A stretch of 64,000 nt of DNA from Dictyostelium discoideum (Eukaryota). The notes under the pieces are model-generated. The model searched no databases and was not told where the DNA came from. It saw only the letters and a list, made by a program, of their open reading frames with translations. Location: positions 2,720,001 through 2,784,000 of the forward strand of contig CM000151.3 of NCBI GenBank assembly GCA_000004695.1, written 5' to 3'. Of the stretch, positions 16,456-59,257 are shown piece after piece (the first letter of the stretch is position 1; each line of letters opens with the position of its first letter). Both the position numbers and the translations under genes were made by a program.

Positions 16456-16487
<32 letters not shown>

Positions 16488-16551
16488 CTTTCTTCTTCCA
16501 TATTCAATAGTTTTTTTTTTTTTTATTATTATTAATACTTATATTAAAAGA

Positions 16552-18602: not shown

Positions 18603-18730
18603 TCTTTATAAAAAACAAGTTTTTTTTTTTTAAAACCATTTATTGTTTTTTTTTTTTTATTTGTGTTTAAAATTTTTTTATTTTTTTAATTTTTTTTAAA
18701 ATCTTGTTTTTTTTATTATTAAACAGCTCA

Positions 18731-18772
18731 AAAGTGTTTGTAGTTATTTGTTTTTTTTTTTCAACACCCCAA
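18731..18772 (+). promoter_or_regulatory. Conserved upstream motif AAGTGTTTGTrGTTATTTGTTTTTT...ACACCCCAATT, a candidate promoter element for paralog F
   Basis: A G/C-containing island in otherwise AT-only intergenic DNA. It recurs 110-220 bp upstream of exon 1 of paralogs F (18731-18772), G (21324-21360) and H (23284-23325). Confidence 0.4.
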
Positions 18773-18883
18773 TTTTTTTTTTTTTTTTTTTTTTTTTTTC
18801 AAATCTTGTTTTATTTTATTTATTATTTTTAATTGTTTTTTATTACAATTATATAAATTATTCATTTAATTTTAACCTAAAAT

Positions 18884-20904
18884 ATGTTTAAACTTAGTAA
18901 TCCTTTTAATTATTTAAATGATTTTAATTATGCAAATTCTTATCCTGAGGCTTTTTGGGATGAAGTTGCAAAAAAGAATGTTTTTTGGTAAGATAATCCA
19001 TTTTTCTACAAAAAAAAAAATTAAAAACAAAAACTAATATATTTAAAAGGGATAAAATGTATGATAAAGTTTATAGTGGTGATGAAATGTATCCAGATTG
19101 GTTTAAAGGTGGTGAATTAAATACATGTTATAATGTTTTAGATATTCAAGTTCAAAATCCATTAAAAAGAGATCAAGACGCTTTAATTTATGAATGTCCA
19201 TATTTAAAGAAAACTATAAAATTAACATATTATCAATTATATGAAAAAGTATGTGAATTTTCAAGAGTACTTTTAAATTTAAATATTTCAAAAAATGATA
19301 ATGTTTTAATTTATATGGCAAATACTTTAGAACCATTAATTGCAATGTTATCATGTGCTCGTATTGGTGCAACTCATTGTGTATTATTCGATGGTTATTC
19401 AGTTAAAAGTTTAATAGATAGAATTGAAACAATTACACCAAAATTAATAATTACAACAAACTATGGTATTTTTAATGATGAAATTATTACATTTACACCA
19501 AATTTAAAAGATGCAATTGAATTATCAACTTTTAAACCAAGTAATGTAATTACTTTATTTAGAAATGATATTACAAGCGAATCAGATTTAAAGAAAGTAA
19601 AAGATATACCAACGATACCAAATACATTAAGTTGGTATGATGAAATTAAAAAATTCAAGGAAAATAATCAATCACCATTTTATGAATATGTTCCAGTAGA
19701 ATCAAGTCATCCACTATATATTATTTATTCAAGTGGTACAACTGGTAATGCTAAAGCAGTTGTAAGAAGTAATGGTCCAAATTTAGTTTGTATGAATTAC
19801 TTTGACAGATATATTTCAGAAAAATATGAATGTACAACATTATTGACAACTTCAAGTGTCGGATGGGTATCATTTCATGGTTTCCTATATGGTATGTTGT
19901 CATTTGGATCTACATTTGTAATGTATGAAGGTGGTATTATTAAAAACAAACATATTGAAGTTGACTTTTGGAATACCATTGAAAAACATAAAGCGACACA
20001 TACATTATCATTGGCAAACACTATTAGATACTTTATTAAAACTGATCCTGAAGGAACAATTATACGTTCAAAGTATGATTTATCAAATTTAAAAGAAATA
20101 TGGGTCGGAGGTGAAGTAATTGAAGAATCAATCCCAGAATACATTGAAAAAAAGTTAAAAATAAAACCAACAAGGGGATATGGTCAAACTGAAATTGGTA
20201 TAGCTTATTTATATTGTTTTGATCATATTAATATCCCATACTACGCAACTGGTTTACCATCAATTTTCATTAGACCATCAATATTTTCAGACGATGGTAA
20301 AGAATTAGGTGTTAACGAAATTGGTGAAATCGCATTTAAATTACCAATGCCACCAAGTTTTGCAACTACATTATATAAAAATGATGAAAAGTTTAAACAA
20401 TTATTTTCAAAATTTCCAGGTTACTACAATCCTGGTGATTTAGGTTTTAAAGATGAAAATGGATTCTATACAATTGTTTCAAGATCAGATGATCAAATTA
20501 AAATCAGTGGTAATAAAGTTCAATTAAATACAATTGAAACATCAATACTAAAACATCCATTAGTTTTAGAATGTTGTTCAATTGGTATTAACGATCCAAC
20601 TTGTTATAGTGTACCAATAGCCTTATTGGTTTTAAAACAACTACAACAACAAGATCAATCAATTCAACAAATTGATTTAAATAAATTACAAAATGAAATA
20701 AATTATATAATTAAACAAGATATTGAATCATTAGCGGTCTTAAGAAAAATTGTAATCGTTAATCAATTACCAAAAACAAAAACTGGTAAAATTCCAAGAC
20801 CAATTATATCAAAGTTTTTAAATGACTCGAATTTTCAATTACCTGATAATGTCAATAACGTTGAAATATTTTATGAAATCAAAGAATTATATATGAAAAA
20901 TTAA
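18884..20904 (+). CDS. Acetyl-CoA synthetase-like acyl-CoA ligase, paralog F (intact; 2 exons)
   Basis: Exon 1 is 18884..18987, the intron is 18988..19049 (GTAAGA...AG), and exon 2 is 19050..20904 (615 aa ORF). Confidence 0.85.
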
Positions 20905-21496
20905 TCTTTATAAAAAATTGACAGTTTTTTTTTTAATCATTTATTGTCATTTTTTTTTGTTTTTAAAATTATTTTTAAAAATTCACAAAAAATAATAACA
21001 TTAGCAAATAAAATAATTATTAAAATTTTATTTATATATCATATTTTGTTTTGTCTTTAAATTTAAATATTCATATATTTTAATTTTTTACTCTACAATA
21101 ACCAATGTTTTTAGTCATTTTTTTTTTATAATAATTTTCTATAATTTTTTAAAGATATTTTTCCTTTTTTTATTTAATATTGCAGTATTAGTAATCTAAG
21201 AAAAATATTTGGAAAGAAAAAAATTGAGATCCAAATGTAAAAATTCCTTTTAATCTGTTTTATCATTAAGAAAAGTTTTATATTTTATATAATAAAAATA
21301 TTTCTTAATTACAAAACAAATTAAAAGTGTTTGTGGTAATTTGTTTTTTACACCCCAATTACTTTTTTTTTTGGTTATTTTTATTTTTTTTATTTTATTA
21401 TAATTATAATTTTTAATTTTTTTTTTTAATACAATTATATAAATTATTAATATTTAATTTTAAATTTAATTTTTTTTTTAAATTAATAAAATAAGA

Positions 21497-23040
21497 ATGT
21501 TTAAACTTAGTGATCCTTTTAATAATTTAAATGATTTCAATTATGCAAATTCTTTTCCTGAGGCTTTTTGGGATGAAGTTGCAAAAAAGAATGTTTTTTG
21601 GTAAGATAATACATTTTTTTCTTTATATAAAAAATATAAACAAAAACTAATATTTTTAAAAGGGATAAAATGTATGATAAAGTTTATAGTGGTGATGAAA
21701 TGTATCCAGATTGGTTTAAAGGGTGAATTAAATACATGTTATAATTTATATGAAACAAGTCTAAAAATAAAGATAAACAAGTTCAAAATCCATTAAAAAG
21801 AGATCAAGATGCATTAATTTATGAATGTCCATATTTAAAGAAAACTGTAAAATTAACATATCATCAATTATATGAAAAAGTATGTGAATTTTCAAGAGTA
21901 CTTTTAAATTTAAATATTTCAAAAAATGATAATGTTTTAATATATATGGCAAATACGGTTGAAGCACCAATTGCAATTTTATCATGTACTCATAATGGTG
22001 CAACTCATTGTGTATTATTCGATGGTTATTCAGTTAAAAGTTTAATAGATAGAATTGAAACAATTACACCAAAATTAATAATTACAACAAACTATGGTAT
22101 TTTTAATGATGGAATCATTAATTTCATCACAAATTTAAAAGAATCTATTGAATTATCAACTTTTAAACCAAGTAATGTAATTACTTTATTTAGAAATGAT
22201 ATTACAAGCGAATCAGATTTAAAGAAAGTAAAAGATATACCAACGATACCAAATACATTAAGTTGGTATGATGAAAATAAAAAACTTAAAGAAAATAATC
22301 AATCACCATTTTATGAATATGTACCAGTAGAATCAAGTCATCCACTATATATTATTTATTCAAGTGGTACAACTGGTAATGCTAAAGCAGTTGTAAGAAG
22401 TAATGGTCCAAATTTAGTTTGTATGAATTACTTTAACAGATATATTTCAGAAAAATATGAAAATATAAAATTATTTACATTTTCAAATGTCGGATGGATA
22501 TCATTTCATGGTTCCCTATAAGGCTTGTTGTCATCTGGATCTACATTTATAATGTATGAAGGTGGTATTATAAAAAACAAATATATTGAAGTTGACTTTT
22601 GGAATACCATTGAAAAACATAAAGTGACACATGCATTGTCATTGGCAAGCACTATTAGATACTTTATTAAAACTGATCCTGAAGGAACAATTATACGTTC
22701 AAAGTATGGTTTATCAAATTTAAAAGAATTTATGGTTGGAGGTGAAGTAATTGAAGAATCAATCCCAGAATACATTGAAAAAAAGTTTTAAAGCAAAAAC
22801 AAGATCAATCAACTCAATTGATTTAAATAAATTACAATCTGAAATTAATAATATCATTACACAAGATATTGAATCGTTAGCAGTCTTGAGAAAAATTGTA
22901 GTTGTTAATCAATTACCAAAAACCAAAGCTGGTAAAACTCCAAGACCAAAGTTTTTAATGATTCAAATTTTCAATTTCCAGATAATATCATTGACATTGA
23001 AATATTTTATGAAATTAAAGAATTATATATGAAAAGTTAA
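21497..23040 (+). pseudogene. Acetyl-CoA synthetase-like ligase paralog G, heavily disrupted
   Basis: Exon 1 is 21497..21600 and is intact. Exon 2 has a frameshift at about 21720 (KG*), an in-frame stop at about 22519 and an internal deletion of ~160 codons near 22790. Only fragmentary ORFs remain (21946..22521, 22525..22791, 22751..23032). Confidence 0.8.
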
Positions 23041-23083
23041 AAATAACTATTTTTAATCATTTATTACTCATTTTTTATTTATT

Positions 23084-23123
<40 letters not shown>

Positions 23124-23504
23124 AAATTTTGAATCGAATTAATTTACAAAATATATGTTAAATGATATAAAATAGATTCAAATATTGTGAATAAAATTGG
23201 AAAATTTTAAAATGATTATAATAATTGGTCAATTAATGAAAATTGTATTTAATAAAAAACTGTTAAATAATAAAACAGTTTAAAGAAGTGTTTGTGGTTA
23301 TTTTTTGTTTTTTAACACCCCCATTTATTTTTATTTATTTTTTATCTTTTATTTTTTAAAATATATATCATTATTTAAATCTTTTATTTTTTATATATAA
23401 TTAAATTTTTTAATTTTAATTTATATTATATTTAATTTTAAAATTAATTTTTAAAATTTTTTTTTTTTTTTTTTTATAATTTATTTAATTAATTAAAAAT
23501 TAAT

Positions 23505-25522
23505 ATGTATAAGCTTAGTGATCCTTTTAATTATGTAAATGACAGTAATTATGCAAATTCTTATCCTGAGGATTTTTGGGATGAAGTGGCAAAAAAGCAT
23601 GTTTTTTGGTAAATATATCTTTTTTTTTTTTCTTTATAAAAAAAGAGATTTTAATATTAAAACAAAAACTAATATTTTTAAAATAAAGGGATAAAATGTA
23701 TGATAAAGTTTATAGTGGTGATGAAATTTATCCAGATTGGTTTAAAGGTGGTGAATTAAATACATGTTATAATTTATTAGACATTCATACAAAAAATCCT
23801 ACTAAAAGAGATCAAGATGCAATAATTTATGAATGTCCATTTTTAAAGAAAACTGAGAAATTAACATATTATCAATTATATGAAAAAGTATGTGAATTTT
23901 CAAGAGTACTTTTAAATTTAAATGTTTCAAAAAATGATGTTGTTTTAATTTATATGTCAAATACATTAGAACCATTAATTGCAATGTTATCATGTGCTCG
24001 TATTGGCGCAACTCATTGTACAATAATCGATGGTTATTCAGTTAAAAGTTTAATAGATAGAATCGAAACAATTACACCAGAATTAATAATTACAACAAAC
24101 TATGGTATATCAAATGATGAAATCATTACATTTACACCAAATTTAAAAGAAGCAATTGAATTATCAACTTTTAAACCAAGTAATGTAATAACTTTATTTA
24201 GAAATGAAGTTTTGGATGAAACAAATTTAAAAAAAGTAAATGATATACCAACGATACCAAATACATTAAGTTGGTATGATGAAATTAAAAAACTTAAAGA
24301 AAATAATCAATCACCATTTTATGAATATGTACCAGTAGAATCAAGTCATTCATTATATATACTATATACAAGTGGTACAACTGGTAATGCTAAAGCTGTT
24401 GTTAGAAGTAATGGTCCACATTTGGTTAGTATTAGATATTATAGATTCCGTAAAGAATCAGATATACCTCAAATTGTATTTTCATATTCAAATATTGGGT
24501 GGGTATCATTTCACGGTTTCTTTTATGGTTTACTATCTGTAGGGAATACATTTGTAATGTATGAAGGTGGTATTATAAATAACAAACATATTGAAGATGA
24601 TTTATGGAAAACAATTGTAAAACATAAAGTAACACATACATTTCCATCCCCATCTGTATTTAGATACCTTATTAAAACTGATCCTGAAGGAAAAATCATC
24701 AGTTCAAAGTATGATTTATCAAATTTAGAAGAAATATGGTGTGGTAGTGAAGTAATTGAAGAATCAATTCCAGAATACATTGAACAAAAGTTAAAAATAA
24801 AATGTTTAAGAGTATTTGGTCAAAGTGAAATTGGCATAACTTCATTTATTAGTGTTCATGCTTTAAATATGCCTTATAAAGCCACTGGCATACCATCAAT
24901 TTTCATAAAACCATCAATACTTTCAGAAGAAGGTAAAGTTTTGAATTCAAATGAAATTGGTTTTGTTGCAATTAAACTACCAATGCCACCAGGTTTTGCA
25001 ACTACATATTATAAAAATGATGAAAAGTTTAAACAATTATTTTCTAAATTCCCAGGTTATTATAATACCGGTGATTTAGGTTATAAAGATCAAAGAGGAT
25101 TTTATACAATTGTTTCGAGATCAGATGATCAAATTAAAATCGGTTATAAAAAAGTTCAATTAAATACAATTGAAACGTCAATTTTAAAACACCCATCAGT
25201 TTTAGAATGTTGTTCGATTGGTATTTATGATCCAGTTATTCGTAGTGTACCAATTGGTGTATTAGTATTAAAAGAAAATCAATCAATTGATTTAATTAAA
25301 TTACAAAATGAAATTAATAATATCATTACACAAGATATTGAATCATGTGCAGTCTTAAGAAAAATTTTAATTGTTAACCAATTACCAAAAACAAAAGTTG
25401 GTAAAATTCCAAGACTAATTTTGTCAAATTTATTAAATGATTCAAATTATCAACTACCCCATAATGTCAGTGACACTGAAATATTTTATGAAATCAAAGA
25501 ATTATATATGAAAAATTTATAG
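23505..25522 (+). CDS. Acetyl-CoA synthetase-like acyl-CoA ligase, paralog H (intact; 2 exons)
   Basis: Exon 1 is 23505..23608, the intron is 23609..23688 (GTAAAT...AAAG), and exon 2 is 23689..25522 (608 aa ORF). Confidence 0.85.
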
Positions 25523-26224
25523 TTAGTAAACTTAATTTAAAAATTTGTTTTTATTTTTTGAAAAAAAAATAATAAAAAAAAAAAAATTTGAATTATTTAT
25601 TTTTTAAATTTAATAAATAAAAAAATAAAAAAATTTAATTATATTTTTTTTTTTTTTATTGGTTTGATAAAAAATAGTGTTTTACCTTTTGATTACATTA
25701 GAAGTTTTGTTTTAAAAAAAAGGTTAAAAATTCAAAAAAAATAATAAGGACGGATATAAATTATTGTTTATTTCCTTTAATGCATAAACTGTGATTAATC
25801 AATATTAAATAAAAAAAATAATAATAATATAAATATTGTTTGTAATGATTAAAATTTTTTTTTTTTTTAATAAGTTTCAAATGTTGAAAAATCTTTAAAA
25901 AAAAAATTAATTTTAATCGTAACAAGCACTTTAAAAAAATATTTACTTATTATTAGCATTTTTAACAAACAACATAAAAATAAAAATTTTAATTAAAATA
26001 AATTAAATTAAATTAAAAAACACACTGGGGTGTGTAGAATTTCTAAAATATTTTAGTGGAAATAATTTAATTTATTTTAATTAAAATTTTTTATTTTTAA
26101 TTATATAAAAATATTATCTAACAAACAATAAGAATTTTTTTTTTTTTTTTTTTTTTTCATTAGAGTTTGTGCACTATTATATTTAATTTTTCATTTTCAT
26201 TTTATTAAATAATTAATAACAAAT

Positions 26225-28240
26225 ATGTATAAACTTAGTGATCCTTTTGATTATTTAAATGATAATAGTTATTCAAAGTCTAATCCAGAAGCTTTTTGGG
26301 ATGAGGTTGCTAAAAAGAATGTTTTTTGGTAAATATATATCTTTTTTTTTCTTTGTTAAAAAAGAGATATTAAAATTAAAACAAAAACTAAGATTTTTAA
26401 AAATAAAAGGGATAAAATGTATGATAAAGTTTATAGTGGCGATGAAATATATCCAGATTGGTTTAAAGGTGGTGAATTAAATACATGTTATAATTTATTA
26501 GATATTCATATTAAAAATCCTGCTAAAAGAGATCAAGATGCATTAATTTATGAATGTCCATTTTTAAAGAAAACAATTAAATTAACATATTATCAATTAT
26601 ATGAAAAAGTATGTGAATTTTCAAGAGTACTTTTAAATTTAAATGTTTCAAAAAATGATAATGTTTTAATATTTATGGCAAATACATTAGAACCATTGAT
26701 TGCAATGTTATCATGTGCTCGTATTGGTGCAACTCAATGTACATTATTCGATGGTTCTTCGGTTAAAAGTTTAATAGATAGAATCGAAACAATTACACCA
26801 AAATTAATAATTACAACAAATTATGGTATTTTAAATGACGAAATCATTACATTTACACCAAATTTAAAAGAAGCAATTGAATTATCAACTTTTAAACCAA
26901 GTAATGTAATAACTTTATTTAGAAATGAAGTTTTGGATGAAACAAAATTAAAAAAAGTTCAAACTATTCCAACTATTCCAAATACATTAAGTTGGTATGA
27001 TGAAATTAAAAAATTAAAAGAAAATAATCAATCACCATTTTATGAATATGTACCAGTAGAATCAAGTCATCCATTATATATACTTTATACAAGTGGCACA
27101 ACTGGTAATACCAAAGCTGTTGTAAGAAGTAATGGTCCGCATATGGTTGGTATTAAATACTATACATTCCGTAAAGAATCAGATATACCTCAAATTGTAT
27201 TTTCACATACAAATATTGGGTGGGTATCATTTCATGGTTTCTTTTATGGTTTATTATCTGGAGGAAACACCTTGGTAATGTATGAAGGTGGTATTATAAA
27301 AAACAAACATATGGAAGATGATTTATGGATAGCTATTGTAAAACATAAAGTAACACATACGTTTCCATCCCCATCTGTATTTAGATACCTTATTAAAACT
27401 GATCCTGAAGGAACAATTGTACGTTCTAAGTATGATTTATCAAATTTAAAAGAAATATGGTGTGGTGGTGAAGTAATTGAAGAATCAATTCCAGAATATA
27501 TTGAACAAAAGTTAAAAATAAAATGTTTAAGAGTATTTGGTCAAAGTGAAATTGGCGTAACTTCATTTATTAGTGTCCATGCTTTAAATATTCCTTATAG
27601 AGCCACTGGCGTACCATCAATTTATATTAGACCATCAATACTTTCAGAAGAAGGTGAAGTTTTGAATTCAAATGAAATTGGTTTAGTTGCATTTAAACTA
27701 CCAATGCCTCCCAGTTTTACAATTACATTTTATAAAAATGATGAAAAGTTTAAACAACTATTTACAAGATTTCCAGGTTACTACGATTCAGGTGATTTAG
27801 GTTATAAAGATCAAAGAGGATTTTATACAATTGTTTCAAGATCAGATGATCAAATTAAGATAGGTTTTAATAAAATTCAATTAAATACAATTGACACATC
27901 AATTTTAAAACATCCATCAGTTTTAGAATGTTGTTCTATTGGTATTTTAAGTCCAGATTGCCATACTGCACCGATTGGTATATTGGTATTAAAAGAAAAT
28001 CCATCAATTGATTTAAATAAATTACAAAATGAAATTAATAATATCATCACGCAAGATATTGAATCACTGGCAGTCTTAAAAAAAATAATAGTTATTAACC
28101 AATTACCAAAAACAAAAGTTGGTAAAATTCCAAGACAAATTTTATCAAATTTATTAAATGATCCAAACTATCAATTACCAGACGATGTCAATGACTCTGA
28201 ACTATTTTATAAAATCAAAGAGTTATATATGAAAAATTAA
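26225..28240 (+). CDS. Acetyl-CoA synthetase-like acyl-CoA ligase, paralog I (intact; 2 exons)
   Basis: Exon 1 is 26225..26328, the intron is 26329..26409, and exon 2 is 26410..28240 (607 aa ORF). It is about 98% identical to paralog J. Confidence 0.85.
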
Positions 28241-28577
28241 TTTTAGCAAAGTTTTTGTAAATTGTTTTTGTTCTAAAAAAAAAAAAAAAAAAAAAGAGTA
28301 ATAATAATTAAAAAAGAAAATAATTTGGATTATTTTTTTTTAATTTAATAAAAGTAGGAGATATAAAAAATAAATAAAAAATATAAAAAAAAAATAAAAA
28401 AATTTAAACTTTTAAATAATATGTTTGAAATTATTTGATTTTTTTTTTTTTTTGACTAAAAATAGTGTTTTACTATGGGACAAAAAGAGTTTTTTTAATC
28501 CACCTCCATCCTTATTGTTTTGTTTAAAGGGGTTTTCTCCCGTTGTAATTTAATTAATTTTAAATTAAATTTAATTT

Positions 28578-28578
28578 T

Positions 28579-28633
<55 letters not shown>
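28578..28633. repeat. Poly(A) tract of about 56 nt; its duplicate is at 33317..33372
   Basis: Uninterrupted A run inside the duplicated 3' flank of paralogs I and J. Confidence 0.95.
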
Positions 28634-28637
<4 letters not shown>

Positions 28638-28800
28638 TATTTAATTTTACAAAAAGTTTCATTATAATATTTAAAAACCAAAATATAAAAAAAATGTCAC
28701 ACAAATTCCCCACTTAAAATATTATTATAATTTCAAAAATATTTAATTAAAAAAGAAATATATAATAAATAAGAATAAAATAAAAATAATATAATTTGGT

Positions 28801-29130
28801 AGTTAAAATGGATTCTAACTTTATCGGTTGAGTTGAAAGAAGTCGCACAAATTTTGTAACTTAAAAAAGAACTAAGGTTTCTATTTCAACCTCTGTTTTT
28901 AATTTTTTCCAAAATATTAAAACCGCAATAAGGCTACGACATCAATAAAATTGAAATATTTGCTTATTGTGAATTCTCACACGGTATATTGTGTAACACA
29001 CACCACCCAGGTTTAACTTCATGAACGCACCGTCAATAGGAATTCACTACAGCAGCGTAGTCAAATTAAATAATAAAATTCACTACGCTACTGTAGTGAA
29101 ATTTTATGGAAAATTCCCTCCAACAATAAT
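28801..29130 (+). mobile_element. Short (~330 bp) copy of an unassigned repetitive element
   Basis: 28801..28990 matches 33535..33725 and the reverse complement of 62150..62330. It is followed by a hairpin-forming segment (aattcactacagcagcgtagtc ... cactacgctactgtagtgaaatt) and then by a repeat of flank 28310-28500 at 29150-29350. Confidence 0.5.
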
Positions 29131-29786
29131 AATTAAAAAAGAAAATAATTTGGATTATTTTTTTTTTAATTTAATAAAAGTAGGAGATATAAAAAATATA
29201 TAAAAAATATAAAAAAAAAATAAAAAAATTTAAACTTTTAAATAATATGTTTGAAATTATTTGATTTTTTTTTTTTTGATTTTTTTTTTTTAATTATTTT
29301 TTTTTTTTGACTAAAAATAGTGTTTTACTATGGGACGAAAAGAGTTTTTTTAATCCACCTCCTTCCTTATTATTTTACATATATCCAAATTATTAATTAA
29401 TTATCCATATTTTTTGGATTCTATCCTTTTTTTATTTTTTATCACCACTAAAGAGATATTCCTTAAAAAAAAAAAAAAATAGAGAAAATAAGGAAAAATA
29501 GATAAATTTTTTTAAATTTTTTTTTCTTAAAAAACTGCAAATAAAAATAAAAACTAGACTGTTTGGTTATTAAAATGAATATTTATTTATATTTTTAAGA
29601 TTTTTTTTTATTTTTTTTTTTTCAAAAGATATGAAAAAATTTTGATCAGTAAAAAAAAATTTAACAATTTAATTTTAAAAAAATAATTATAAAATCCCAA
29701 TCTAAGCAATGAGAAAGATATAAAATAATTTGTTTTGTTTTTAATTCAAACAATGAGAAAGATATAAAATGATTCTATTTATATTT

Positions 29787-29824
<38 letters not shown>

Positions 29825-30962
29825 CTTTGGACTCCATTTTATCTAGGCATTTAATTAGACAAAACTTAAATAAAGATAATTACAAAAAATATATGAATGA
29901 AAATTTTTAAAACCCTATAGATATTGGGCAGATATGATAATTTCAAACCTTTTTTTAATTTAAAAAAAAAAAAAAAAAAATATCTTGCACGGGAAAAAAA
30001 AACCTAGTAAAATGTTAAATTATTTAAAAAAAAATAAAAATTCTTATATTTTAATATTTTTTATTTAAATATTTATTGTACACCCATTATTTTTTATCAT
30101 TTTATTATAGTTTTTAATAATCTACAATATATTAAACTATAGTTTAATGTTTTAAAAAATGAGAAATTTCAATAGTATTATTTCCTATTAATTGTTGTAT
30201 ATTATTAAATTATAGTTTTATGTTTTAAAAAATGAGAAATTACAATAGTAAAATTTCTCACAATATGGTAAATCAATAAATTTTTTATAATTTAATGACA
30301 AATTAATATTCAATTCTAATTAAATAATATAAGATTTTTTCAATTTTTAATTTATTAAAATATATTTTTTTTATGGCCAGATTCTTTTTAATTATTTTAT
30401 GATAATTTAATAATAAAGTGTGATTAATTATTAATTAGAAATTGATATTAGTTTATTAAAAATTTTATTATATAAAAATATTATCTAACAAACAATAAGA
30501 ATTTTTTTTTTTTTCATTAGAATTTTTGCACTTTCCCAAAAAATTCTCCATATTATTTTATTTATTTATATTTTTTATTGCGACATTAATTTCTTATTTT
30601 TTTTTATTATGAATTATGGTATATGTAAAAAAAAGTAGTAGGAATAAATTTGGAGATTTTAAATAAACCTTTTTCATGTATCTTTTAAATAATCTTAATT
30701 GAAATTATTAGTGGACATATTTTTTTTATTTAATTTTATTCATTTCATAATTCTAGTTTACTCACTTTTTGTAATTTAGGATATTCATAATATGAATAAT
30801 TTTTAATGACGGGTGCAATAAAATTTATTTTTATGTATAAATTTTTTTTTTCCATGATTTAGTATTATTAATTTTTTTTTTCTTTTTTTTTTTTAATATT
30901 TCATTTGTATTTTATTATATTTAATTTTTCATTTTCATTTTATTAAATAATTAAAAACAAAT

Positions 30963-32978
30963 ATGTATAAACTTAGTGATCCTTTTGATTATTTAAATGA
31001 TAACAGTTATTCAAATTCTAATCCAGAAGCTTTTTGGGATGAGGTTGCTAAAAAGAATGTTTTTTGGTAAATATATATCTTTTTTTTTCTTTGTTAAAAA
31101 AGAGATATTAAAATTAAAACAAAAACTAAGATTTTTAAAAATAAAAGGGAAAAAATGTATGATAAAGTTTATAGTGGCGATGAAATATATCCAGATTGGT
31201 TTAAAGGTGGTGAATTAAATACATGTTATAATTTATTAGACATTCATATTAAAAATCCTGCTAAAAGAGATCAAGATGCATTAATTTATGAATGTCCATA
31301 TTTAAAGAAAACAATTAAATTAACCTATTATCAATTATATGAAAAAGTATGTAAATTTTCAAGAGTTCTTTTAAACTTAAATGTTTCAAAAAATGATAAT
31401 GTTTTAATATTTATGGCAAATACATTAGAACCATTAATTGCAATGTTATCATGTGCTCGTATTGGTGCAACTCAATGTACATTATTCGATGGTTATTCGG
31501 TTAAAAGTTTAATAGATAGAATCGAAACAATTACACCAAAATTAATAATTACAACAAATTATGGTATTTTTAATGACGAAATCATTACATTTACACCAAA
31601 TTTAAAAGAAGCAATTGAATTATCAACTTTTAAACCAAGTAATGTAATTACTCTATTTAGAAATGAAGTTTTGGATGAAACAAAATTAAAAAAAGTTCAA
31701 AATATTCCAACTATTCCAAATACATTAAGTTGGTATGATGAAATTAAAAAATTAAAAGAAAATAATCAATCACCATTTTATGAATATGTACCAGTAGAAT
31801 CAAGTCATCCATTATATATACTTTATACAAGTGGCACAACTGGTAATACCAAAGCTGTTGTAAGAAGTAATGGTCCGCATATGGTTGGTATTAAATACTA
31901 TACATTCCGTAAAGAATCAGATATACCTCAAATTGTATTTTCAAATGCAAATATTGGGTGGGTATCATTTCATGGTTTCTTTTATGGTTTATTATCTGGA
32001 GGAAACACCTTGGTAATGTATGAAGGTGGTATTATAAAAAACGAACATATAGAAGATGATTTATGGATAGCTATTGTAAAACATAAAGTAACACATACAT
32101 TTCCATCCCCATCTGTATTTAGATACCTTATTAAAACTGATCCTGAAGGAACAATTGTACGTTCTAAGTATGATTTATCAAATTTAAAAGAAATATGGTG
32201 TGGCGGTGAAGTAATTGAAGAATCAATTCCAGAATACATTGAACAAAAGTTAAAAATAAAATGTTTAAGAGTATACGGTCAAAGTGAAATTGGCGTAACT
32301 TCATTTATTAGTGTCCATGCTTTAAATATTCCTTATAGAGCCACTGGCGTACCATCAATTTATATTAGACCATCAATACTTTCAGAAGAAGGTGAAGTTT
32401 TGAATTCAAATGAAATTGGTTTAGTTGCATTTAAACTACCAATGCCACCCAGTTTTGCAATTACATTTTATAAAAATGATGAAAAGTTTAAACAACTATT
32501 TACAAGGTTTCCAGGTTACTATGATTCAGGTGATTTAGGTTATATAGATCAAAGAGGATTTTATACAATTGTTTCAAGATCAGATGATCAAATTAAGATA
32601 AGTTGTAATAAAATTCAATTAAATACAATTGACACATCAATTTTAAAACATCCATCAGTTTTAGAATGTTGTTCTATTGGTATTTTAAGTCCAGATTGTC
32701 GTACTGCACCGATTGGTATATTGGTATTAAAAGAAAATCCATCAATTGATTTAAATAAATTACAAAATGAAATTAATAATATCATCACGCAAGATATTGA
32801 ATCACTGGCAGTCTTAAAAAAAATAATAGTTATTAACCAATTACCAAAAACAAAAGTTGGTAAAATTCCAAGACAAATTTTATCAAATTTATTAAATGAT
32901 CCAAACTATCAATTACCAGACGATGTCAATGACTCTGAACTATTTTATAAAATCAAAGAGTTATATATGAAAAATTAA
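30963..32978 (+). CDS. Acetyl-CoA synthetase-like acyl-CoA ligase, paralog J (intact; 2 exons)
   Basis: Exon 1 is 30963..31066, the intron is 31067..31147, and exon 2 is 31148..32978 (607 aa ORF). Confidence 0.85.
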
Positions 32979-36319: not shown

Positions 36320-40155
<3,836 letters not shown>

Positions 40156-41300: not shown

Positions 41301-43018
41301 TATTAAAAAATTATATTATTATTATTATTATTATTATTAATATATATATATATAATTTTATATTTACCAATTTCATTATTTAATAAATTTTTAAATTTTA
41401 AATATTTTTGATGATCAATTTCTTTATAATAATTTGATAATGAAGAGAAAATGAATTTATAATAATCAGTGGTTGAATTTTGTTTTGAAGATTCAATCAT
41501 TGAATAAATTAAATCTAATTTAGAGTAAGATTTTGAACCAATTAATACAACCTCTTTATTATCAATCGATTGAATTAATAATTTTTTACATTCTAAATGA
41601 TTTGGATTAATTTCTAATGCTCTTGTAAATGATGATATTATATTCCATGAACAATTGAAATTACCATTACTATCTACTGATTTAATTGATTGATTTCTAT
41701 TCTCTAAATAACAGCCAAGTTTAAAATAAGATTCTGCAAAACTATTTGGAATTGTTTGAATATTACTATTATCGATTATATACTGCTCTTGTATCGAAAT
41801 TGCAATACCAAGTAATTGTAATCTATTTAATTTTATTGATTTTTCATCATCACCATCACCATTATCAATTATAACTAAATCATAATTATTTAATAATTTA
41901 TTTGATAATTTTAAATATAAAGTTGGTTCATTTGGAAATTGTAAAATTGCTTCAGTTAAAATTTTAATCGATTGTTGTGGTGTAATTTCAGGTTGTTCAG
42001 ATAAATAGATTGAAGAGAATGGTGTTGTATTTTTATTTAACTGATAATTGTTTTTACAAATTTCAAATGTTGAAAGTTTATCACCATTCATCATTTGAAT
42101 TTCACCAAGGTTGTTAACTAATAAAAAGGTTGCTAAATTATGATTGGCTACTAAATTACCTGGCTCCATATCTAAAACCTTTAAAAACAATTCCAACTTG
42201 TTTAAACCAACCCATTGGAATCTATTATCATTCATTAATATTGGTAGCACAATTCTATCTTGTAACATTGTCGATTGATAATTTGTTAATTTAATATAGG
42301 GTGGTGTAAATGATGGACTGATTTCAATCTCTTTAATCAACAACTCCTTCAATGTGAATTTTGTTGTACCGTCTAGTAATGTCAATACGTAATCGTCGTC
42401 ACACTCTTCAATATCTTTCAACCAACTATATAAAAAGTAATGAATGAAGGCTTGTTTTGGCTCAATATTTAATATCTCTAAAAATATTTCCAATTGTCCA
42501 ATCTCTCTACCATTAACGATTGCAACATCTCTTGCTCCTAATAATTCTGATAGTTTTTGATAATTTTCAATATTAAATGGTTCCAATTCAATTTGTTTTG
42601 TAATTTTCTTTACTTCAAAATTATTTATTATTCTTACTGTATAATTCTTTTTATTTTTATTATTTTTATTATTACCACTACTACTACTACTATTATTCTT
42701 GTTGCTATCGTTGCTAGTTTGTGATGTTTGTTTAGAATTTGATGATGATGATGATGACTTTTTATTTAATGTGGAATAATGAAGTTTATAGAAATTTCTA
42801 TATGCATTTTTAAAATTATTTATTGTAGTATTATTGGATTGGCTATCGGTGTTATTTCCAAATAAATTTAAAAAAGATAAACCATTATTATTATTATTAT
42901 TATTGTTATTATTGTTATTATTATTACCGCTATTTGCAAAAATAGTACCACCACTATTACTAGTAACAATTAATTGGCTTGGTTTTTTTGCAATACCATT
43001 TAATAGTATTCTAAACAT
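40431..43018 (-). CDS. TPR-like repeat protein (2 exons, about 827 aa)
   Basis: Exon 1 is 41368..43018 and exon 2 is 40431..41263. The intron 41264..41367 (104 bp) has donor GTAAAT and acceptor TTTTAG, joins in phase 1, and has no stop across the junction (...NNEIG|EKRKLKLIRLINQYPFYSEYYHLLYQEMNKDES...). Repeated ~40 aa units (IELEPFNIENYQKLSELL, ALEINPNHLECKKLL, SIELDPNRPMLYYQLSEEL) occur in both exons. Confidence 0.6.
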
Positions 43019-45355: not shown

Positions 45356-45364
<9 letters not shown>

Positions 45365-48300
45365 TGAAGAATAAAGTTTTAATAATAATGAAGAAGATAA
45401 AACTGATAATGAAGAAACTACCATTGCAGCAGCAGCAGCCATTGGTGGTAAAGACACACCAAAGATTACTCTAAATAAACCAGCGGCTAGTGGAACAGCA
45501 CAAAGATTATAGATTAAAGCTAATGTGAAATTAATTTTAATTCTACGGAAAACTACTCTCGATAAATGAATTGAACGATAAACATCAGTGAGTGAATTTT
45601 TCAATAAAACGATTGAAGATGATTCAATAGCGATATCAGTACCAGTTGCAACTGAAATACCAACATCAGCTTGTGACAATGCAGGTGAATCATTAACACC
45701 ATCACCAACGAAACAAACTACATTACCACTAGCTTGTAAATCTGAAACTTTCTCTGCTTTCTCTTTTGGTATAACCTCTGAATAGATATGATCTTCATCA
45801 ATGCCAACTTGATTTGCAATGAATTTAGCTGCTCTTTTATTATCACCTGTTACCATGTAACATTTTAATCCCATTGATTTTAATTTCTTTATTGCTCTTT
45901 TTGAATCATCTCTTGGTATATCTGAAATTGACATTATACCTTTAAATAAAATAGTGGTGGTACTAGTGGTATCATTGTCATCATTGCTATCACCATATGA
46001 AACATAAATTACAGTTTTACCATTTGTTTCCCATGATTGAGCTAATTCAACGAATTCAATTGGTACATTAATTGAATTATCTTTCATAAATGATAAATTA
46101 CCAATTTTACATTGAATTAATGAATCTACAATACATGATAAACCTCTACCAGCAATACCTTTAAAATCTGAAACTGGTGGGAATTGATAATCTTGAATCA
46201 TTGGCGAACCAATTGGATCTGCACCTTTGGTGGTTAAAGTTTGTTTGCAAAATTGTACAATTGCTTTACCAATTGGATGTTCTGAACCACTTTCAGCTGC
46301 ACCAACAATTTTAAAAAATAATTTATCTTCTTCTTCTTTTGGAGCAGAGTTGTTGTTGTTGTTGTTATCGTTGTTGTTTGATTGATGGTTTACACGATAA
46401 TCAGTTACATTCATTTTACCAGTTGTAATTGTACCAGTTTTATCAAATAAAATTGCAGTTGCTTTATGAGCAGTTTCTAATGGTTTACCACCTTTAATTA
46501 ATATACCAATTGAAGCACCAACACCAGTACCAACCATAACAGCAGTTGGGGTTGCTAAACCTAATGCACATGGACATGCAATTACAATTACAGAGATTGC
46601 AGTTAAGAATGAGTATAGGAATGGTGATGTATTATGTCTCCATTCAGCAGATACTGAATTTGTCTCGGTTACAGCTATCCAAATACCAAATGTAATTAAA
46701 CCTAATAATAGAATGATTGGTACGAAATATTTTGAGATTGTATCTGCTAATTGTTGAATTGGTGCTTTTGAAGTTTGAGCTTGTTGAACTAACCCAATGA
46801 TTTGTGATAATGTATTCTCACTACCGATTTTATTTGCCTTAATAATTAAAACACCATCCAAATTCAATGTACCACCAGTAACTGAATCATTAACTTTCTT
46901 CAATACTGGTATACTCTCACCAGTGATCATACTTTCATCACATGATGATGAACCATTAATAACAATACCATCAGTTGGAATTGATTGACCTGGTATAACT
47001 TTTAATAAATCACCATATGAAATTAATGATGATTGTATAATTTCTTCAGATTCAATTATAATTGGTGCAGTTGATGAGCCATTGTAATTATCTTGATTTC
47101 TTAATGTAACTAATGTGGTTTCTTTTGATTGTAAATTCATTAATTTTACAATTGCTGATGAAGTATGACCCTTTGCAATATTTTCTAACCATCTACCAAG
47201 AATAATGAATGTAATTAAACTTGCAGAAGTTTCAAAGAAATGCATTGCTTCATACATTGGGTTTACTATACCAATGATAATTGAAATTACTGAATAAACA
47301 TAGGCACATGTTGAACCAACTGCAACTAATAAATCCATATTACCATGTAAATTTTTAACGGCAGCATATGAAACTTTATAAAATGTAGCACCACTTATAA
47401 ATTGGACAGGGGTTGCTAAAATGAAACCTATCAATGCTTCAACTGGGAACCCATCAGCTAATTGATAATGTAAGAATTTAATACTCTTTATCGGTACCAA
47501 TATCATTGCAATAATAATCAATGGCAATGTCCATGATATTGAAAATATGAATAAATGTTTCCATTTCTTAATTTCTCTCTTTCTCATTAACGAATTCTTA
47601 ATATCATCAGTCTCTGGATTAAATAATTCACTATCAATATCATAATCTAATTTCAATGATTTCATTATAACTCTTGCTCCGATTTGATATGAATCACCAT
47701 CAACTTTTAATAAAACAATTTGATCACCACTATTTTTATTTTTTTTATTTTTCTTTTGTGATGATGATGATGAGTGTTGTTTAATAATTTCTAAATTTGA
47801 AATACCTTGAAATTTAATTTTTAAATCATCAAATAATAATAATGGTTGTTCATCATTTAGTTTATTGGATTGTTTTTCTTGATAATTTAAAAGTTTTAAA
47901 TGAAAAGTACCAGCTTTTGATTGTTGAATTAATTTAGTTTCAAATCCTAATATTTCAATTGATTCTTGAATTTCTTTAACATCTTTACAAATCGATGAAT
48001 TATATTTAATTTCAGCTCTTTCGGCCAATAAATTAACATTACATTCAATTACACCATCAACACTTTTAATACTATGTTCGACCATACCAACACATGATGC
48101 ACATGTCATACCAAATACACCAATTGATATTATTTCAATTAATTCTAATTTATTATTATTATTATTATTATCAATTTTAATATCAATTGATTCCATTTCA
48201 ATTGATGTTGAATTATTATATTTATTATTATTATTAATTTCAACAACTTCTTCATCTGATGATGAAATTGGTTCAAATGGAGATTTAGTAATACTACTAA

Positions 48301-48605
48301 TATCATTTAATGATGATGAAGATGATGAATTTGAATAATCTAATAATAATGGTGAAGTAACTGTTGATGTTTGTTGTTGTTGTTGCTTTTGTTTTTGACA
48401 TTTAAAACCCAATTTTTCAATTGTTTTTCTAATGGTTCTATCATTTACACTTGCAATAACGAATAATTGTTTGGTTTTAAAATTGATTTTAACTGAATGA
48501 ATATTTTTATTTTGTAATAATGTTGCTTCAATTCTATTGGCACAACCAACTTCACATTTCATACCTTTAATTTCAAATACTCTTTCTCTACTATTATAAT
48601 CACCA

Positions 48606-48640
<35 letters not shown>

Positions 48641-49268
48641 TGGTGATTGTAATATACTACCATCATTTAATAATGGTGTATTTTCCATTGATTCCTTTTT
48701 TTTAAAAAAATTAAATTAATAAAATAATTATTTAATATATTTATATTTATATATTTATATTTACCATTAATTCTGGACATTCTTTTGATTGAATTGCAGC
48801 AACTTCTAAATTTAAAGATTTAAATTGTTTTAAAATTTTAAATAAATAACGATCGACACTACATTCAACTTGAACTATTTGATTGGTATAATCAATGTTT
48901 ACATAGATAACATCGGTTGAAATCTCTTGTAATGTTTGTTTAATAGTTTCAACCAATTCTTCATTACCTTTTAATTGTGGAATGTAGAATCTGAAAAATG
49001 TATTTTCAATTAATCCTGAAATTGGACAACATTTTCTTTCAACTGTAGATTGTTGTTGTTGTTGTCCATCACTTTCAACACCACTATCTCCACAACTTCC
49101 ACTTTCACATTTACAACCATTACTTTCGTTTGGTTTTTGTTGTTGTCCAATGATTGGTGAAGAACAACATGTTGTGGATTTATTTTCAGTTTCAATTAAT
49201 CCTTGTAAAAGATCATTACATGAACATTTAATACAATTGCAATTACATCCGTCAAGTGAAATTGCCAT
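45356..49268 (-). CDS. Copper-transporting P1B-type ATPase (ATP7-like) with an additional upstream exon encoding a Cys-rich, degenerate metal-binding domain
   Basis: Exon 2 is 45356..48694 (1110 aa ORF). It has heavy-metal-associated domains (MKCEVGC; GMTCASCVGMVEH), a CPC motif (IACPCALGLATP), DKTGT phosphorylation motif (FDKTGTITTGK) and GDGVNDSPAL. Exon 1 is 48765..49268, the 173 aa ORF starting MAISLDGCNCNCIKCSCN. The inferred 70 bp intron 48695..48764 (ATG|GTAAAT ... AAAAAAAAG|GAATCAATGGAAAAT) joins exon 1 in frame to the ATPase. Confidence 0.75.
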
Positions 49269-50908: not shown

Positions 50909-50911
<3 letters not shown>

Positions 50912-52066
50912 TCAGACATTGAAAAAGAAGAAAATAAAGATAGTTCACCACCAACTACACCACCAACAGGAGGACCCACAAAAAATAATGATATTGATGA
51001 TGATGAAAAAGAAAATAAAATTGAAAGATCATTAACAGAGAATTTAAATAAAAGATTTTACAACAACAACAACAACAATAGTAATAATTCTAATGGTGAA
51101 GAAATTGAAGATATTGATTATAAAAATTTTAAAACTATTAAAGAATTTGGATATTATTATAATGATAAAGGTGAATTAAGAAGTATTGAAGGTGAAGAGA
51201 AATTTAAATTTATAAATCAACAACAGTATGATAGGTTAGGTGATATTATTGTGAAAACCATTCAAAATAAAATGAAATCGGAACCAATCAATTTAGAGGA
51301 GCATTGGATACCAAAAGGTGAAACCAACCAATGTAACATTTTCACAAGTAAAGATTTCTTTGAAAACCCAACAAAGCTTATGGTATTCATTAATGGTAGT
51401 GGTGCAGTTAAATCTGGTCAATGGGCAAGAAGTCTATGTATAAATGACACACTAAACACTGGTTCGATTTTACCTTATTTGAATGACGCAATTTCAAATG
51501 ATTTCTCAATCATAGTTTTAAATCCAAATTATAATGTATTTGAAGAAAGAATAATTGAAGAAGGAGAAGAACAAAAAGAAAAAGCAAAAGAAGAGGAAGA
51601 AAAAAAAGATGATAATGGTAAACTATTAAAAAAGAAAAGAGTAGATAATTCAATCAAAGGTAGTGAAAATTCAAATAATCATATTTTAACAGTTTATGAT
51701 GAATTTATAAAGAAATCACCAGCAAAAGAGATTGTAATTGTTGCACATAGTTTTGGTGGTGTGAATACTACATATCTATTGGATAATAGAGGTGAAGAGA
51801 TTGCTGATAGATTAAAATCCATTGCATTCACTGATTCCGTTCATTCATTATCACCAAAATCATCATCTTTCACTAAGTCATTCTTTGCTGATGAAAATAA
51901 AACAAAGAATTGGGTAAAAAGTGATAAAAAGTTAAATACAGATTTAGGATTTTCAAAATTACAAGGTTGCAATATAGCCTCATCTGGTCACAGAGTTCAC
52001 GAATTCACTTCCTCAGCTTGTAGAGTACCTTTATTTCAATTTATTTTAAATTCATTAAAAAAATAA
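50909..52066 (+). CDS. Arb2 / FAM172A-like alpha/beta-hydrolase-fold protein
   Basis: 385 aa ORF with an acidic/N-rich N-terminus, then ...LMVFINGSGAVKSGQWARSLCINDTLNTGSILPYLN... and IVIVAHSFGGVNTTYLL (GxSxG-type elbow), as in the FAM172/Arb2 family. Confidence 0.5.
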
Positions 52067-55127: not shown

Positions 55128-55184
55128 TTTAAAAGGAAGGTGGGAATTTGATATAAGATTTAAAAGGAAGGTGGGAATTTGATA
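55128..55184 (+). promoter_or_regulatory. Tandem direct repeat (2 copies of TTTAAAAGGAAGGTGGGAATTTGATA) upstream of the G8-domain gene
   Basis: Two copies of a 26 bp GC-containing unit, 5 bp apart, lying 220-275 bp upstream of the ATG at 55403. Confidence 0.35.
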
Positions 55185-55402: not shown

Positions 55403-58400
55403 ATGAAGATCTATAAAAAGAATCATTTTTTAAAAATTTTAATAATATTTATTTATTTATCGTGTAATATTTTAAAGGTAATTATTTAATTTTTAATTTT
55501 ATTTTTATTAATTTATTTATTAATAATTGTTTTTATAATAATTAATAAAAAGGTAAATGCAGATGGTACATTTTCAACAATTCAACCAAGTACAGATATT
55601 AAATTTGATAAATCAAATTTAGAATTTGTTGCCGAATGGGATGTTAGTGCAAATAGTATTTCAAATGTTGTAGGTAGTACAGATTCAAGTGAATTTTCAT
55701 TAAATTATGGTGTATGGGGACCAACATATAATTATTTAATCGCAAAAAATAAATCACCATCAATAAAGGCAAATGTTGATTATACATTTTCATTTGATTT
55801 TAAACTTGGTAAAGCTTTAGGAGAATATAATAATTATCAAAGTATGGTATTATCTTTTTACATTCCAGAGGATATCGCATACTTTCCATGGGAAATTCGT
55901 ACACCATTATATACAACCAATGAATTCAGTGGTAATTTCGCATCTACAAGTTATCAATCAAAGATTTTAACATTTAGATCAACAGTTGATATTGGTAATT
56001 CAATAATGGTACTCCGTATAAACCGTGCAACTGAAACTGGTCCAACTGCATCAAGTGTTTATTTTAGAAATATGAAAATTACAATTCCATCAAAACCAAT
56101 TACAACACCAACTGATTTATTAACAAAAGATTCTGAATTAATTGTAATTCCAAAACCACCAATTTCATTAGACCTACAGGATTTAACAAAATGTCCATAT
56201 CTAACTGCAAGTGATTTATATAATTGGCATGATCCAACCATTTGGCCAAATGGTGTTGTACCATCACCAAATCAAAATATAACAATACCTGCTGGTAAAC
56301 GTGTTTTAATATCTGCTTCTTCAATTTCACAAACTCAAATTTACTCAAGAATTGTTGTACCTGTAAATAGTGAATTAATATTCAATGATCAAAATTTCAC
56401 AATGAATATTAGAGATATATATGTTCAAGGTAAATTCATTATGGGTACAAGTTTATGTCGTTACAATTCCTTTATCAATATTATATTCCATGGTGAAAAA
56501 ACTTTACAAGATACAATTGCTCAATTCTATGGATCGAAAGGTATTGCTGTTGCTTCTGGTGGTTTCATTTCAGTTCAAGGTAAACAATATCATAATACAT
56601 GGAGTAAACTTGCTTCAAATGTGTGGTCTGGCGATAGAGTAATTTGGATTCAAGATAATGTAAATTGGGAAGTTGGTCAACAAGTTTTAATTACAACATC
56701 AGTTTACAAAGATGAATTAGATAATCAAAATGAAATTTTGACAATTAAAGCTATTGAAGGTAAGAAAATTGAATTCACTGAACCAATTAAATGGTTTAAA
56801 TATGGTTCTCAAGAATATCAAAGTGAAGTTGCACTTCTTTCAAGAAGAATTGTATTCTCAAGTGATGAATCTTCATCTGTTTCAACTTCATTTGGTGGTC
56901 ATATTCTATCTTCTGGTGAAATGCAATTCGCTGGTGTTCAATTAAAAAGAATGGGTCAAAAGAATGTAAAAGCACGTTATCCACTTCATTATCATTTAGG
57001 TGGTACACTAAATAATTCATTTATTTCTGATTGTTCAGTTACTAATAGTTATTATCGTTGTTATACAATTCATGGTACCAATAATGTTACATTAACAAGA
57101 AATGGTATTTATTTATATTTTTTCAATTATATTATAAATATTTAAATATATATATAATTATTAAAATTATTATTATTATTTCTATAAATTTAAATTTAGT
57201 TGCTTATGATGCATTTGGCCATTGTTATTATTTAGAAGATGGTGTTGAAGTTGATAATAGAATTTCATTTAATCTTGGTGCATATGTTCATACAATTGGT
57301 AAACCTGCTGCTGGTGCATCTCAAATTGGTATTTATTTACTTTTAATCTACTAATAATTTTAATTATATATATAAATAAACTAACCAATTTAAAAAATTT
57401 TAATTATTACCTTAGGTGAAACATTTTATCAAAGTAGTGAATTAACTCAACCAGCAGACTCTGCAGCCTCTTGTTTCTACATTACAAATTCATGGAATTC
57501 ATTTATTGGAAACGCTGCAAGTGGTGGTTGGGCAGGTTTTGCTTTCCCAAATTTAGTATGTAATAATTATTTTCAAAGTTTTATTTTTTTTATTCAATAT
57601 TCTAACATTATTTAATTTTTAGCCAAAACCAATAGGTAATCATAGAACTCTTAATATTATACCAATGCAGTATCCTATTAAAGAATGGCAAGGAAATACA
57701 GCCCACTCGAGTGGTTATTACTTTGAAGATGGGTAATTATCTATTATTTATTTTTATTAATTATTATTAATTTATTATTAAAATTATTTTTATAATTAAT
57801 GAATTAATTCATTATTTTTTTTTTTTAAAAAAATAAAAAGTGCATCAATTTATGTTGGTGGTAATTTAACATTTAATGAAGCAAATGGAATGTTAATTTA
57901 TAATTCAGGTAGATTAGGTAGAACTACATATGTAAATGGTGTAAAAAATGAAAATAATGTTGTTTTTGATAGATTAAATAATACAAAGATATTTTTATCA
58001 AATTTAGGTGTTGGATATTGGGGTGAAAATATAGAGATTGTAGGTTATGAATCACATGATAATACACGTCCTGTATCACTTTTTGGTAACGTTTGGTTAC
58101 ATAATGCACTTGTTAATGGTCAATCTGGTAATATTTTAACTAAAAATTCAGAGACAACAAGACAAGGTTTCCGTTTCTATGATTTTTATGTTCAAACCAT
58201 AATTTCAAATACTATTTTTAGAAATTTTATTCATTCAACAGCTGCAACTAAACGTGATGAAGATAATGTTGTTATTACAGCTACTACATTTAGTGATGTA
58301 TTTAAACCACAATTTATTTCAGCAACTAAAAATATTACATTTCAAAATGTACCACAATCTCAAATCATTGGACATGAAGATGTTGCAAATTCTGGTAGTA

Positions 58401-59257
58401 GTAGATTATTTAATTTCCTTGATGGTGATGGTTCAGTAACAAGTTCATTCACTGGTAAACCTGGTATACCACAAATTGTTGGTTCTCATGTATCATGGTG
58501 GAAATTTGATGATTCTTGTTTATTCAGTACAGAATGGAATGTTTGGGTTTGTAATAAAGGTACTAAAGGTCTTGCTAATATTGAATTTTGGGTACCAGGT
58601 TTTATGGAACGTGAACTTGAACAAGACCCAGATTCATACATTGGTTCAATTAGTTTATTTGGTAGTGGTATAAATGATGAAAGAAAAACATTATTAACTA
58701 GAAATCGTAAGTTTAATAGTTTTATAAACCAATATTAAAAATGATAATAATAATTGTTATATTAATAATACTTTTTTTTTTATTTTTTATTTTTTTATTT
58801 TTTTAAAGCTGGTATTACTGGTGTTTCAAATATGGGTTGGTATGCTTATTTCACAATTGGTACACCAAATTATTTAAGGATATGGACAGCTCAAATTGCA
58901 TTTGGTGAATATATTTTTTTAGCTATACCATATCCAACTGGTACAACTTTTACAATTACAAGTGAGTATGATTATTCTAATCAATATACATACACTATTA
59001 CAAAGACAACATCTGCACTTGCAGTTAAACAAGGTAATGGCAAACAATACTACTTTGATGGTACTCATTTATTTTTAAAACTCGTCAATTTTATGAATAC
59101 TGGTGGAAGTTGGGAAAGTTTCGATAGAGTTGGTATAAAGATTCCAGATGTATATTGGACATACATTTACAATATTCGTGCTACAAATACTGCTAAACCA
59201 TCTGTAAATGGTTACTTTTTAAATTTACCAGATGTTAGACCATCTTCAACTTTATAA
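55403..59257 (+). CDS. Secreted G8-domain / right-handed beta-helix protein (CEMIP/TMEM2-like), 7 exons, about 1106 aa
   Basis: The seven exons are 55403..55477 (signal peptide MKIYKKNHFLKILIIFIYLSCNILK), 55553..57104, 57200..57328, 57416..57555, 57623..57732, 57841..58706 and 58809..59257. Donors are GTAATT, GTATTT, GTATTT, GTATGT, GTAATT and GTAAGT, and every junction keeps the ORF-track frames (55844.., 57890.., 58832..). G8-like region is ...RYPLHYHLGGTLNNSFISDCSVTNSYYRCYTIHGTNNVTLTRN. Confidence 0.65.

Follow-up and report, generated by a model that had tools for sequence, protein, structure and literature searches.

What is encoded by a set of interrupted reading frames toward the end of a long piece of Dictyostelium discoideum DNA? 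The piece in question (contig CM000151.3 of assembly GCA_000004695.1, positions 2,720,001 to 2,784,000 of the forward strand) is 64,000 nucleotides (nt) long and is called the window here, with positions counted from its first letter. The window is 21% GC, and the region under study, 55403-59257 on the + strand, looks like a typical Dictyostelium gene. A bacterial-style track of open reading frames (ORFs) shows it only as three fragments, 55844-57145 (433 amino acids, aa), 57890-58738 (282 aa) and 58832-59257 (141 aa), as had been said in the sequence-only reading of this DNA, which proposed in their place a seven-exon gene for a secreted G8 and beta-helix protein of about 1106 aa. We conclude that the locus is the comF gene and that its product, ComF, is most likely a secreted beta-helix protein that binds glycans and probably cleaves or modifies them, and we put the probability of this reading as a whole at roughly 0.85.

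We begin with the identity of the gene. When the seven exons are rebuilt independently from the three-frame translation and the boundary motifs, the same model is obtained: a coding sequence of 3321 nt that gives 1106 aa and a TAA stop. An exact-sequence look-up (NCBI, UniRef and EukProt) finds this product, over its full length, as XP_644451.1 / EAL70525.1 / EAL70846.1, entered as 'hypothetical protein' under DDB_G0273257 and DDB_G0273669 of D. discoideum AX4, while the UniRef name for the protein is 'Communication mutant protein F' (comF). The spliced product has the same residue as the comF-1/comF-2 protein at all 1106 of 1106 positions, and the locus is this very gene rather than a relative of it; the two locus tags carry one protein sequence in AX4, and the pair of locus tags presumably reflects the AX4 duplication of chromosome 2. 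Because the protein is identical throughout, the model has the same exon-intron structure as the comF entry, and since it is identical to the reference annotation it is a re-discovery: public databases already contain the gene with its name, exon structure and G8 annotation. That the locus is the annotated seven-exon comF gene, with the domain architecture described below, is in our judgment nearly certain. The com genes reportedly come from the restriction enzyme-mediated integration (REMI) screen of Kibler et al. 2003 in Dev Biol. In the open-access texts searched, no mention of comF was found by name or by locus tag, and the gene has no entry in the REMI-seq supplements (PMC8386026).

The structure of the gene, all on the + strand, is as follows. 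Exon 1 (55403-55477, 75 nt, aa 1-25) starts with an ATG in an AAAATG context and encodes most of the signal peptide, MKIYKKNHFLKILIIFIYLSCNILK; its product has the same N-terminus as XP_644451.1. Intron 1 (55478-55552, 75 nt, GTAATT..AAAAAG, 4% GC) has a length that keeps the frame, yet it contains a TAA, and because this stop lies in frame at 55487-55489 the removal of the intron is obligatory. Exon 2 (55553-57104, 1552 nt, aa 26-542 and the first base of codon 543) carries the end of the signal peptide, a domain resembling a carbohydrate-binding module (CBM), a linker, the G8 segment and the first part of the CEMIP beta-helix. Intron 2 (57105-57199, 95 nt, GTATTT..ATTTAG, 4% GC, phase 1) leads to exon 3 (57200-57328, 129 nt, about aa 543-586), and intron 3 (57329-57415, 87 nt, GTATTT..CCTTAG, phase 1), which splits the codon of G586, leads to exon 4 (57416-57555, 140 nt, about aa 586-632). 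After intron 4 (57556-57622, 67 nt, GTATGT..TTTTAG, phase 0) comes exon 5 (57623-57732, 110 nt, aa 633 to about 669), and intron 5 (57733-57840, 108 nt, GTAATT..AAAAAG, phase 2) splits the codon of G669. Exon 6 (57841-58706, 866 nt, about aa 669-958) adds the rungs at the C-terminal end of the beta-helix, together with the beginning of the C-terminal domain; it is separated by intron 6 (58707-58808, 102 nt, GTAAGT..TTAAAG, phase 1) from exon 7 (58809-59257, 449 nt including the TAA stop, about aa 958-1106), which encodes the C-terminal beta-sandwich. All six introns are GT..AG and preserve the reading frame, just as the sequence-only reading had it, and the three peptides that it quoted are all found in the spliced product; its count of four short internal exons is one too many, as there are only three (129, 140 and 110 nt). 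The introns have 4-12% GC and exons 2-7 have 29-38%.

Could such a model nevertheless be an artefact, or the gene a pseudogene, with the ORF fragments being separate genes or remnants and the small exons mere chance open frames? The splice junctions speak to this question. When 11 dictyostelid homologues are aligned, each of the five internal junctions lies within a conserved block without gaps. N542 and A544 on either side of junction 2/3 are invariant, as are L632 and P635 around junction 4/5, and N957 and G959 around P958, whose codon is split by intron 6. Among the split glycine codons, G586 is invariant in 11/11 and G669 is at least 90% conserved. The small exons, moreover, hold the family's best-conserved part (GHCYYLEDGVE, QPAD, GNAASGGW, GNTAHS), and intron positions are common to D. 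firmibasis, a sister species. At the genomic locus of its orthologue, tblastn places exon breaks after residues 551, 595, 678 and 966, which are comF introns 2, 3, 5 and 6 once an offset of +9 residues at the N-terminus is allowed for. Intron 1 differs: it is without a counterpart in D. firmibasis, where residues 1-551 are one exon (L001 3001-4653), and this could be urged in favour of an artefact, as could the shorter products (1079-1102 aa) in automated annotations of some other strains and species. The intron 1 difference, as judged from the two genomic sequences, indicates an intron gain, a loss or an intronisation between the sister species. Against an artefact stand, in addition to the conserved junction codons, the agreement of the product with the reference annotation, the inclusion of the gene among those published as expressed and as differentially expressed, and the single continuous beta-helix that the spliced protein forms in its structural model. 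We consider the artefact or pseudogene explanation effectively refuted. Because the product equals a deposited protein, has two strong Pfam matches and carries conserved junctions, the model is far beyond chance.

The next question is what kind of protein the seven exons encode. An AlphaFold2 model of the full-length product, built on 48 homologues, has a predicted local distance difference test score (pLDDT) of 91.9 and a predicted template modelling score (pTM) of 0.89, with residues 1-27 as the only unstructured part (pLDDT <50). The layout runs from a signal peptide (about residues 1-28) through a CBM-like sandwich, a conserved linker, and the G8 segment with the CEMIP beta-helix, to a C-terminal sandwich (CEMIP domain X). 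The N-terminal beta-sandwich of CBM-like fold (55577-56092, about aa 34-205) is without a Pfam family; a Pfam scan at E<=10 gives no family for this domain or for the exon-6 peptide. The G8 domain (56243-56614, aa 256-379) matches PF10162 with E 4.5e-33 and 114.2 bits against a cut-off of 22.9, over profile positions 2-124 of 124, so the G8 assignment made from the letters alone is borne out. The peptide RYPLHYHLGG that had been offered as the G8-type segment is misplaced, however: it occupies aa 500-509, outside the Pfam G8 domain and inside the CEMIP-type right-handed beta-helix core (56888-57712, aa 471-662, exons 2-5). This core matches CEMIP_beta-hel (PF24606) with E 4.2e-53, well above the cut-off, and it comes after the G8 segment, in the order that had been predicted. 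Its motifs RYPLHYH, YRCYTIHGTNN, GHCYYLEDGVE, QPAD and GNTAHS are conserved in the family (48 homologues and human TMEM2). The match to CEMIP_X (PF24605; 58859-59083, aa 975-1049, exon 7) is borderline, with 26.1 bits for the whole protein against a cut-off of 27.6 and 30.1 bits for the exon-7 peptide alone. In the structural model, the G8 segment and the CEMIP beta-helix form one long right-handed beta-helix.

The product is likely to be secreted. Its sole hydrophobic segment, aa 8-26 (the top Kyte-Doolittle window), follows a Lys-rich start, MKIYKK, and behind it, after aa 28, is a VNA|DG site; there is no other transmembrane segment and no hydrophobic C-terminal tail, and the product has 8 N-X-S/T sequons. 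By this heuristic test, in which a lone N-terminal hydrophobic segment and a cleavage site with small residues are found together, the signal-peptide exon of the sequence-only reading stands, and the N-terminus is likely a cleavable signal peptide. The low model confidence at the N-terminus fits this assignment, because such peptides are expected to be modelled so.

How close, then, is ComF to CEMIP and TMEM2, to which its architecture had been likened? ComF is homologous to the core of TMEM2 (CEMIP2; PDB 8c6i) and CEMIP (KIAA1199/HYBID). Human TMEM2 matches the product in phmmer with E 7.6e-29, and the family profile matches TMEM2 with E 8.6e-121 over TMEM2 residues 337-1074, a coverage from which the homology reaches well past the domains that Pfam delimits. 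What ComF does not match are the GG lectin-like domains of TMEM2 and CEMIP, whether inserted in the helix or placed at the C-terminus. The HMMER alignment passes from TMEM2 residue 165 to 257 with overlapping query positions (292-382 and 321-669) and skips the TMEM2 segment with the inserted GG domain; Pfam at E<=0.1 gives four families, none of them a GG-type domain. Further differences are the lack of a transmembrane anchor, in place of which ComF has the predicted cleavable signal peptide, and the additional N-terminal CBM-like domain. The claimed CEMIP/TMEM2-like architecture is therefore only partial: the G8 domain and the CEMIP beta-helix are there, but the GG lectin-like domains are unmatched and the CBM-like domain is extra. 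Because the protein passes the tests for the G8 domain and the CEMIP beta-helix and fails on the GG-domain feature, we place it by sequence in the wider G8/CEMIP superfamily, and it is not an orthologue of CEMIP/TMEM2 in architecture.

The same comparison bears on the substrate. If ComF worked as has been reported for CEMIP and TMEM2, it would specifically be a hyaluronidase. No hyaluronan synthesis is known from Dictyostelium, and the match to CBM70 is no better than that to dozens of other CBM families. The substitutions reported to abolish the activity of TMEM2 and CEMIP (R265C, D273N, D286N and CEMIP R187) are all carried by GG lectin-like domain 1 (PMC10206443), which is the kind of domain that is unmatched in ComF and lies in the TMEM2 segment skipped by the alignment, and the activity of TMEM2 is itself disputed (PMC10206443). 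Considering the unmatched GG-type domain and this dispute, we reject the hyaluronidase reading as very improbable. Hyaluronan is an unlikely substrate for ComF, which probably differs from CEMIP/TMEM2 in its substrate too.

Much closer relatives are found among the dictyostelids, where proteins named 'G8 domain-containing protein' agree with ComF in their architecture, from the CBM-like domain through to the C-terminus, in their conserved motifs and in a C-terminal ...PSSTL ending. D. firmibasis RB653_009385 is the orthologue, with 81% identity, and relatives in D. discoideum, D. purpureum, Heterostelium and Tieghemostelium have 50-58% identity, making this a multi-copy dictyostelid family. 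DDB_G0286897 is presumably another G8-domain paralogue. A Cys-containing stretch after the signal peptide, 'C..xxxWRPT..SP', is present in paralogues but absent from ComF and the D. firmibasis orthologue, and many paralogues are about 1400 aa long against the 1106 aa of ComF. More distant relatives come from a chytrid, a diatom, eukaryote transcriptomes, metagenome contigs and bacteria, some of the latter with sorting domains of the type IX secretion system (T9SS).

We turn our attention to what ComF may do. An alignment of the 48 homologues, which go down to about 26% identity and include bacterial ones, has a set of polar residues that are at least 94% conserved: H504, H506, R527, H532, E555, D556 and E559; N567, D600, N610, N613, N618, N657 and H660; and D742, Y782, D783, D863 and D865. 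The conserved polar residues of aa 500-660 are kept in human TMEM2. In fold, ComF is like the right-handed beta-helix carbohydrate-active enzymes (CAZymes), among them GH87 alpha-1,3-glucanase, GH28 polygalacturonase, GH110, the PL6 lyases, the AlgE4/AlgG mannuronan C5-epimerases and phage tailspike depolymerases. The sequence identity to these enzymes is only 7-15%, and ComF is likened to them by fold and by its conserved His/Asp/Glu set; in Pfam there are no sequence-family matches outside G8/CEMIP.

From these observations a mechanism can be proposed. ComF would be secreted early in starvation and development, and its CBM-like domain would dock it on an extracellular polysaccharide. The beta-helix, with a constellation of His, Asp, Glu, Arg and Asn residues that extends from bacteria to humans, would bind that glycan and would probably cleave or modify it. 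The polysaccharide-modifying or adhesion role suggested from the letters alone is a reasonable proposal. On our analysis, an extracellular, glycan-directed function of ComF is very probable, while true catalysis we infer at about even odds. A secreted ComF would fit the non-cell-autonomous phenotype that 'communication mutant' implies, as far as the gene name and the screen allow.

Alternatively, ComF may be a non-catalytic glycan-binding protein of the matrix or of adhesion, which binds polysaccharide of the sheath, of the cell surface or of prey, and thereby organises the matrix or presents a ligand. This possibility has to be taken seriously, though we would not bet on it. Several points weigh against a catalytic ComF. 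To our knowledge, enzymatic activity is known for no non-vertebrate member of the family. The high-scoring structural neighbours include a few non-enzymes (NosD, the PfbA adhesin and Vag8). In the work on TMEM2, the homologue of solved structure, the purified soluble ectodomain was without detectable hyaluronidase activity or hyaluronan binding, the active site could not be assigned, and the mutations that abolish activity map to the GG domain, which is apparently missing in ComF (PMC10206443); beyond this paper and reviews, we found no recent structural work on the CEMIP active site in the literature. On the other side, hydrolases, lyases or epimerases that act on polysaccharides make up the great majority of the structural neighbours; the near-invariance of certain His, Asp, Glu and Arg residues in homologues that go down to about 26% identity, bacterial ones included, is a pattern more usual for catalytic or metal sites than for binding surfaces; and the fusion of a CBM with a beta-helix is a well-known arrangement among enzymes. 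We retain the reading of ComF as a glycan-binding and probably glycan-cleaving or glycan-modifying protein.

Is the gene used, and when? DDB_G0273257 is in the set of 8,040 genes above the expression threshold (PMC4403905), and in the supplements of the same study, read by column position, it is listed for filter development under UP_Hr01 and UP_Hr03_gradual. Because of its presence in these lists, comF is transcribed and is induced early in starvation. DDB_G0286897 shares the UP_Hr03_gradual column with comF (PMC4403905, supplementary file 7).

Upstream of the gene, at 55128-55184 on the + strand, lies a perfect 26-bp direct repeat, TTTAAAAGGAAGGTGGGAATTTGATA, with copies at 55128-55153 and 55159-55184 (period 31), 220-275 bp before the ATG. 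It is found nowhere else in the window. Upstream of the D. firmibasis orthologue, in the corresponding position (L001 2689-2760), one AGGTGGGAA-type copy is present, with a conserved TGTCTTT.TGA.AATTAA block behind it. The repeat is a candidate promoter element and may be a conserved cis-regulatory one. Downstream of the stop codon, a scan for bacterial promoters and terminators, irrelevant to a eukaryote, gives no more matches than shuffled sequences do.

The remainder of the window holds several other genes. At least six ORFs that resemble one another, each about 610-670 aa long, form a tandem array over 14032-32978 on the + strand (14032-16050, 16746-18602, 19057-20904, 23696-25522, 26417-28240 and 31155-32978 in the ORF list). 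The five that were scanned are acetyl-CoA-synthetase-like AMP-binding enzymes, with ACAS_N and AMP-binding in 5/5 and AMP-binding_C in 4/5, and a shorter ORF of 191 aa at 21946-22521 may be a fragment. The 1110-aa ORF at 45356-48688 (- strand) encodes a P-type ATPase of the heavy-metal (copper) type, in which two HMA domains are accompanied by an E1-E2 ATPase domain and a HAD hydrolase domain. An ORF of 1169 aa at 36646-40155 (+ strand) matches no Pfam family at E<=0.001; because it is listed with a TTG start, it is probably a piece of a larger spliced gene. Upstream of comF lie an Arb2-domain, alpha-beta-hydrolase-like ORF (50909-52066, + strand) and a TPR-containing one (41303-43018, - strand), neither with an evident functional link to comF.

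What does the locus mean beyond its own annotation? As a discovery its value is small, the gene being already public, although a reading of the raw sequence recovered a seven-exon gene residue for residue. Its interest lies in ComF-type proteins as stripped-down relatives of CEMIP and TMEM2, with the GG domain unmatched and a CBM-like head; the residues conserved in this family could guide work on the active site of the vertebrate proteins. It is tempting, if still rather doubtful, to go one step further and to regard ComF and its dictyostelid paralogues as secreted glycan-cleaving or glycan-modifying enzymes, in which H504, H506, R527, H532, E555, D556 and E559 would be the long-sought catalytic centre of the whole G8/CEMIP/TMEM2 superfamily and action on matrix or prey glycans would release or shape a signal between cells, which would account for a non-cell-autonomous 'communication' phenotype. 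If this is true, a protein of a genetically tractable amoeba that does without the GG domain would make the disputed mechanism of CEMIP/TMEM2 directly testable.

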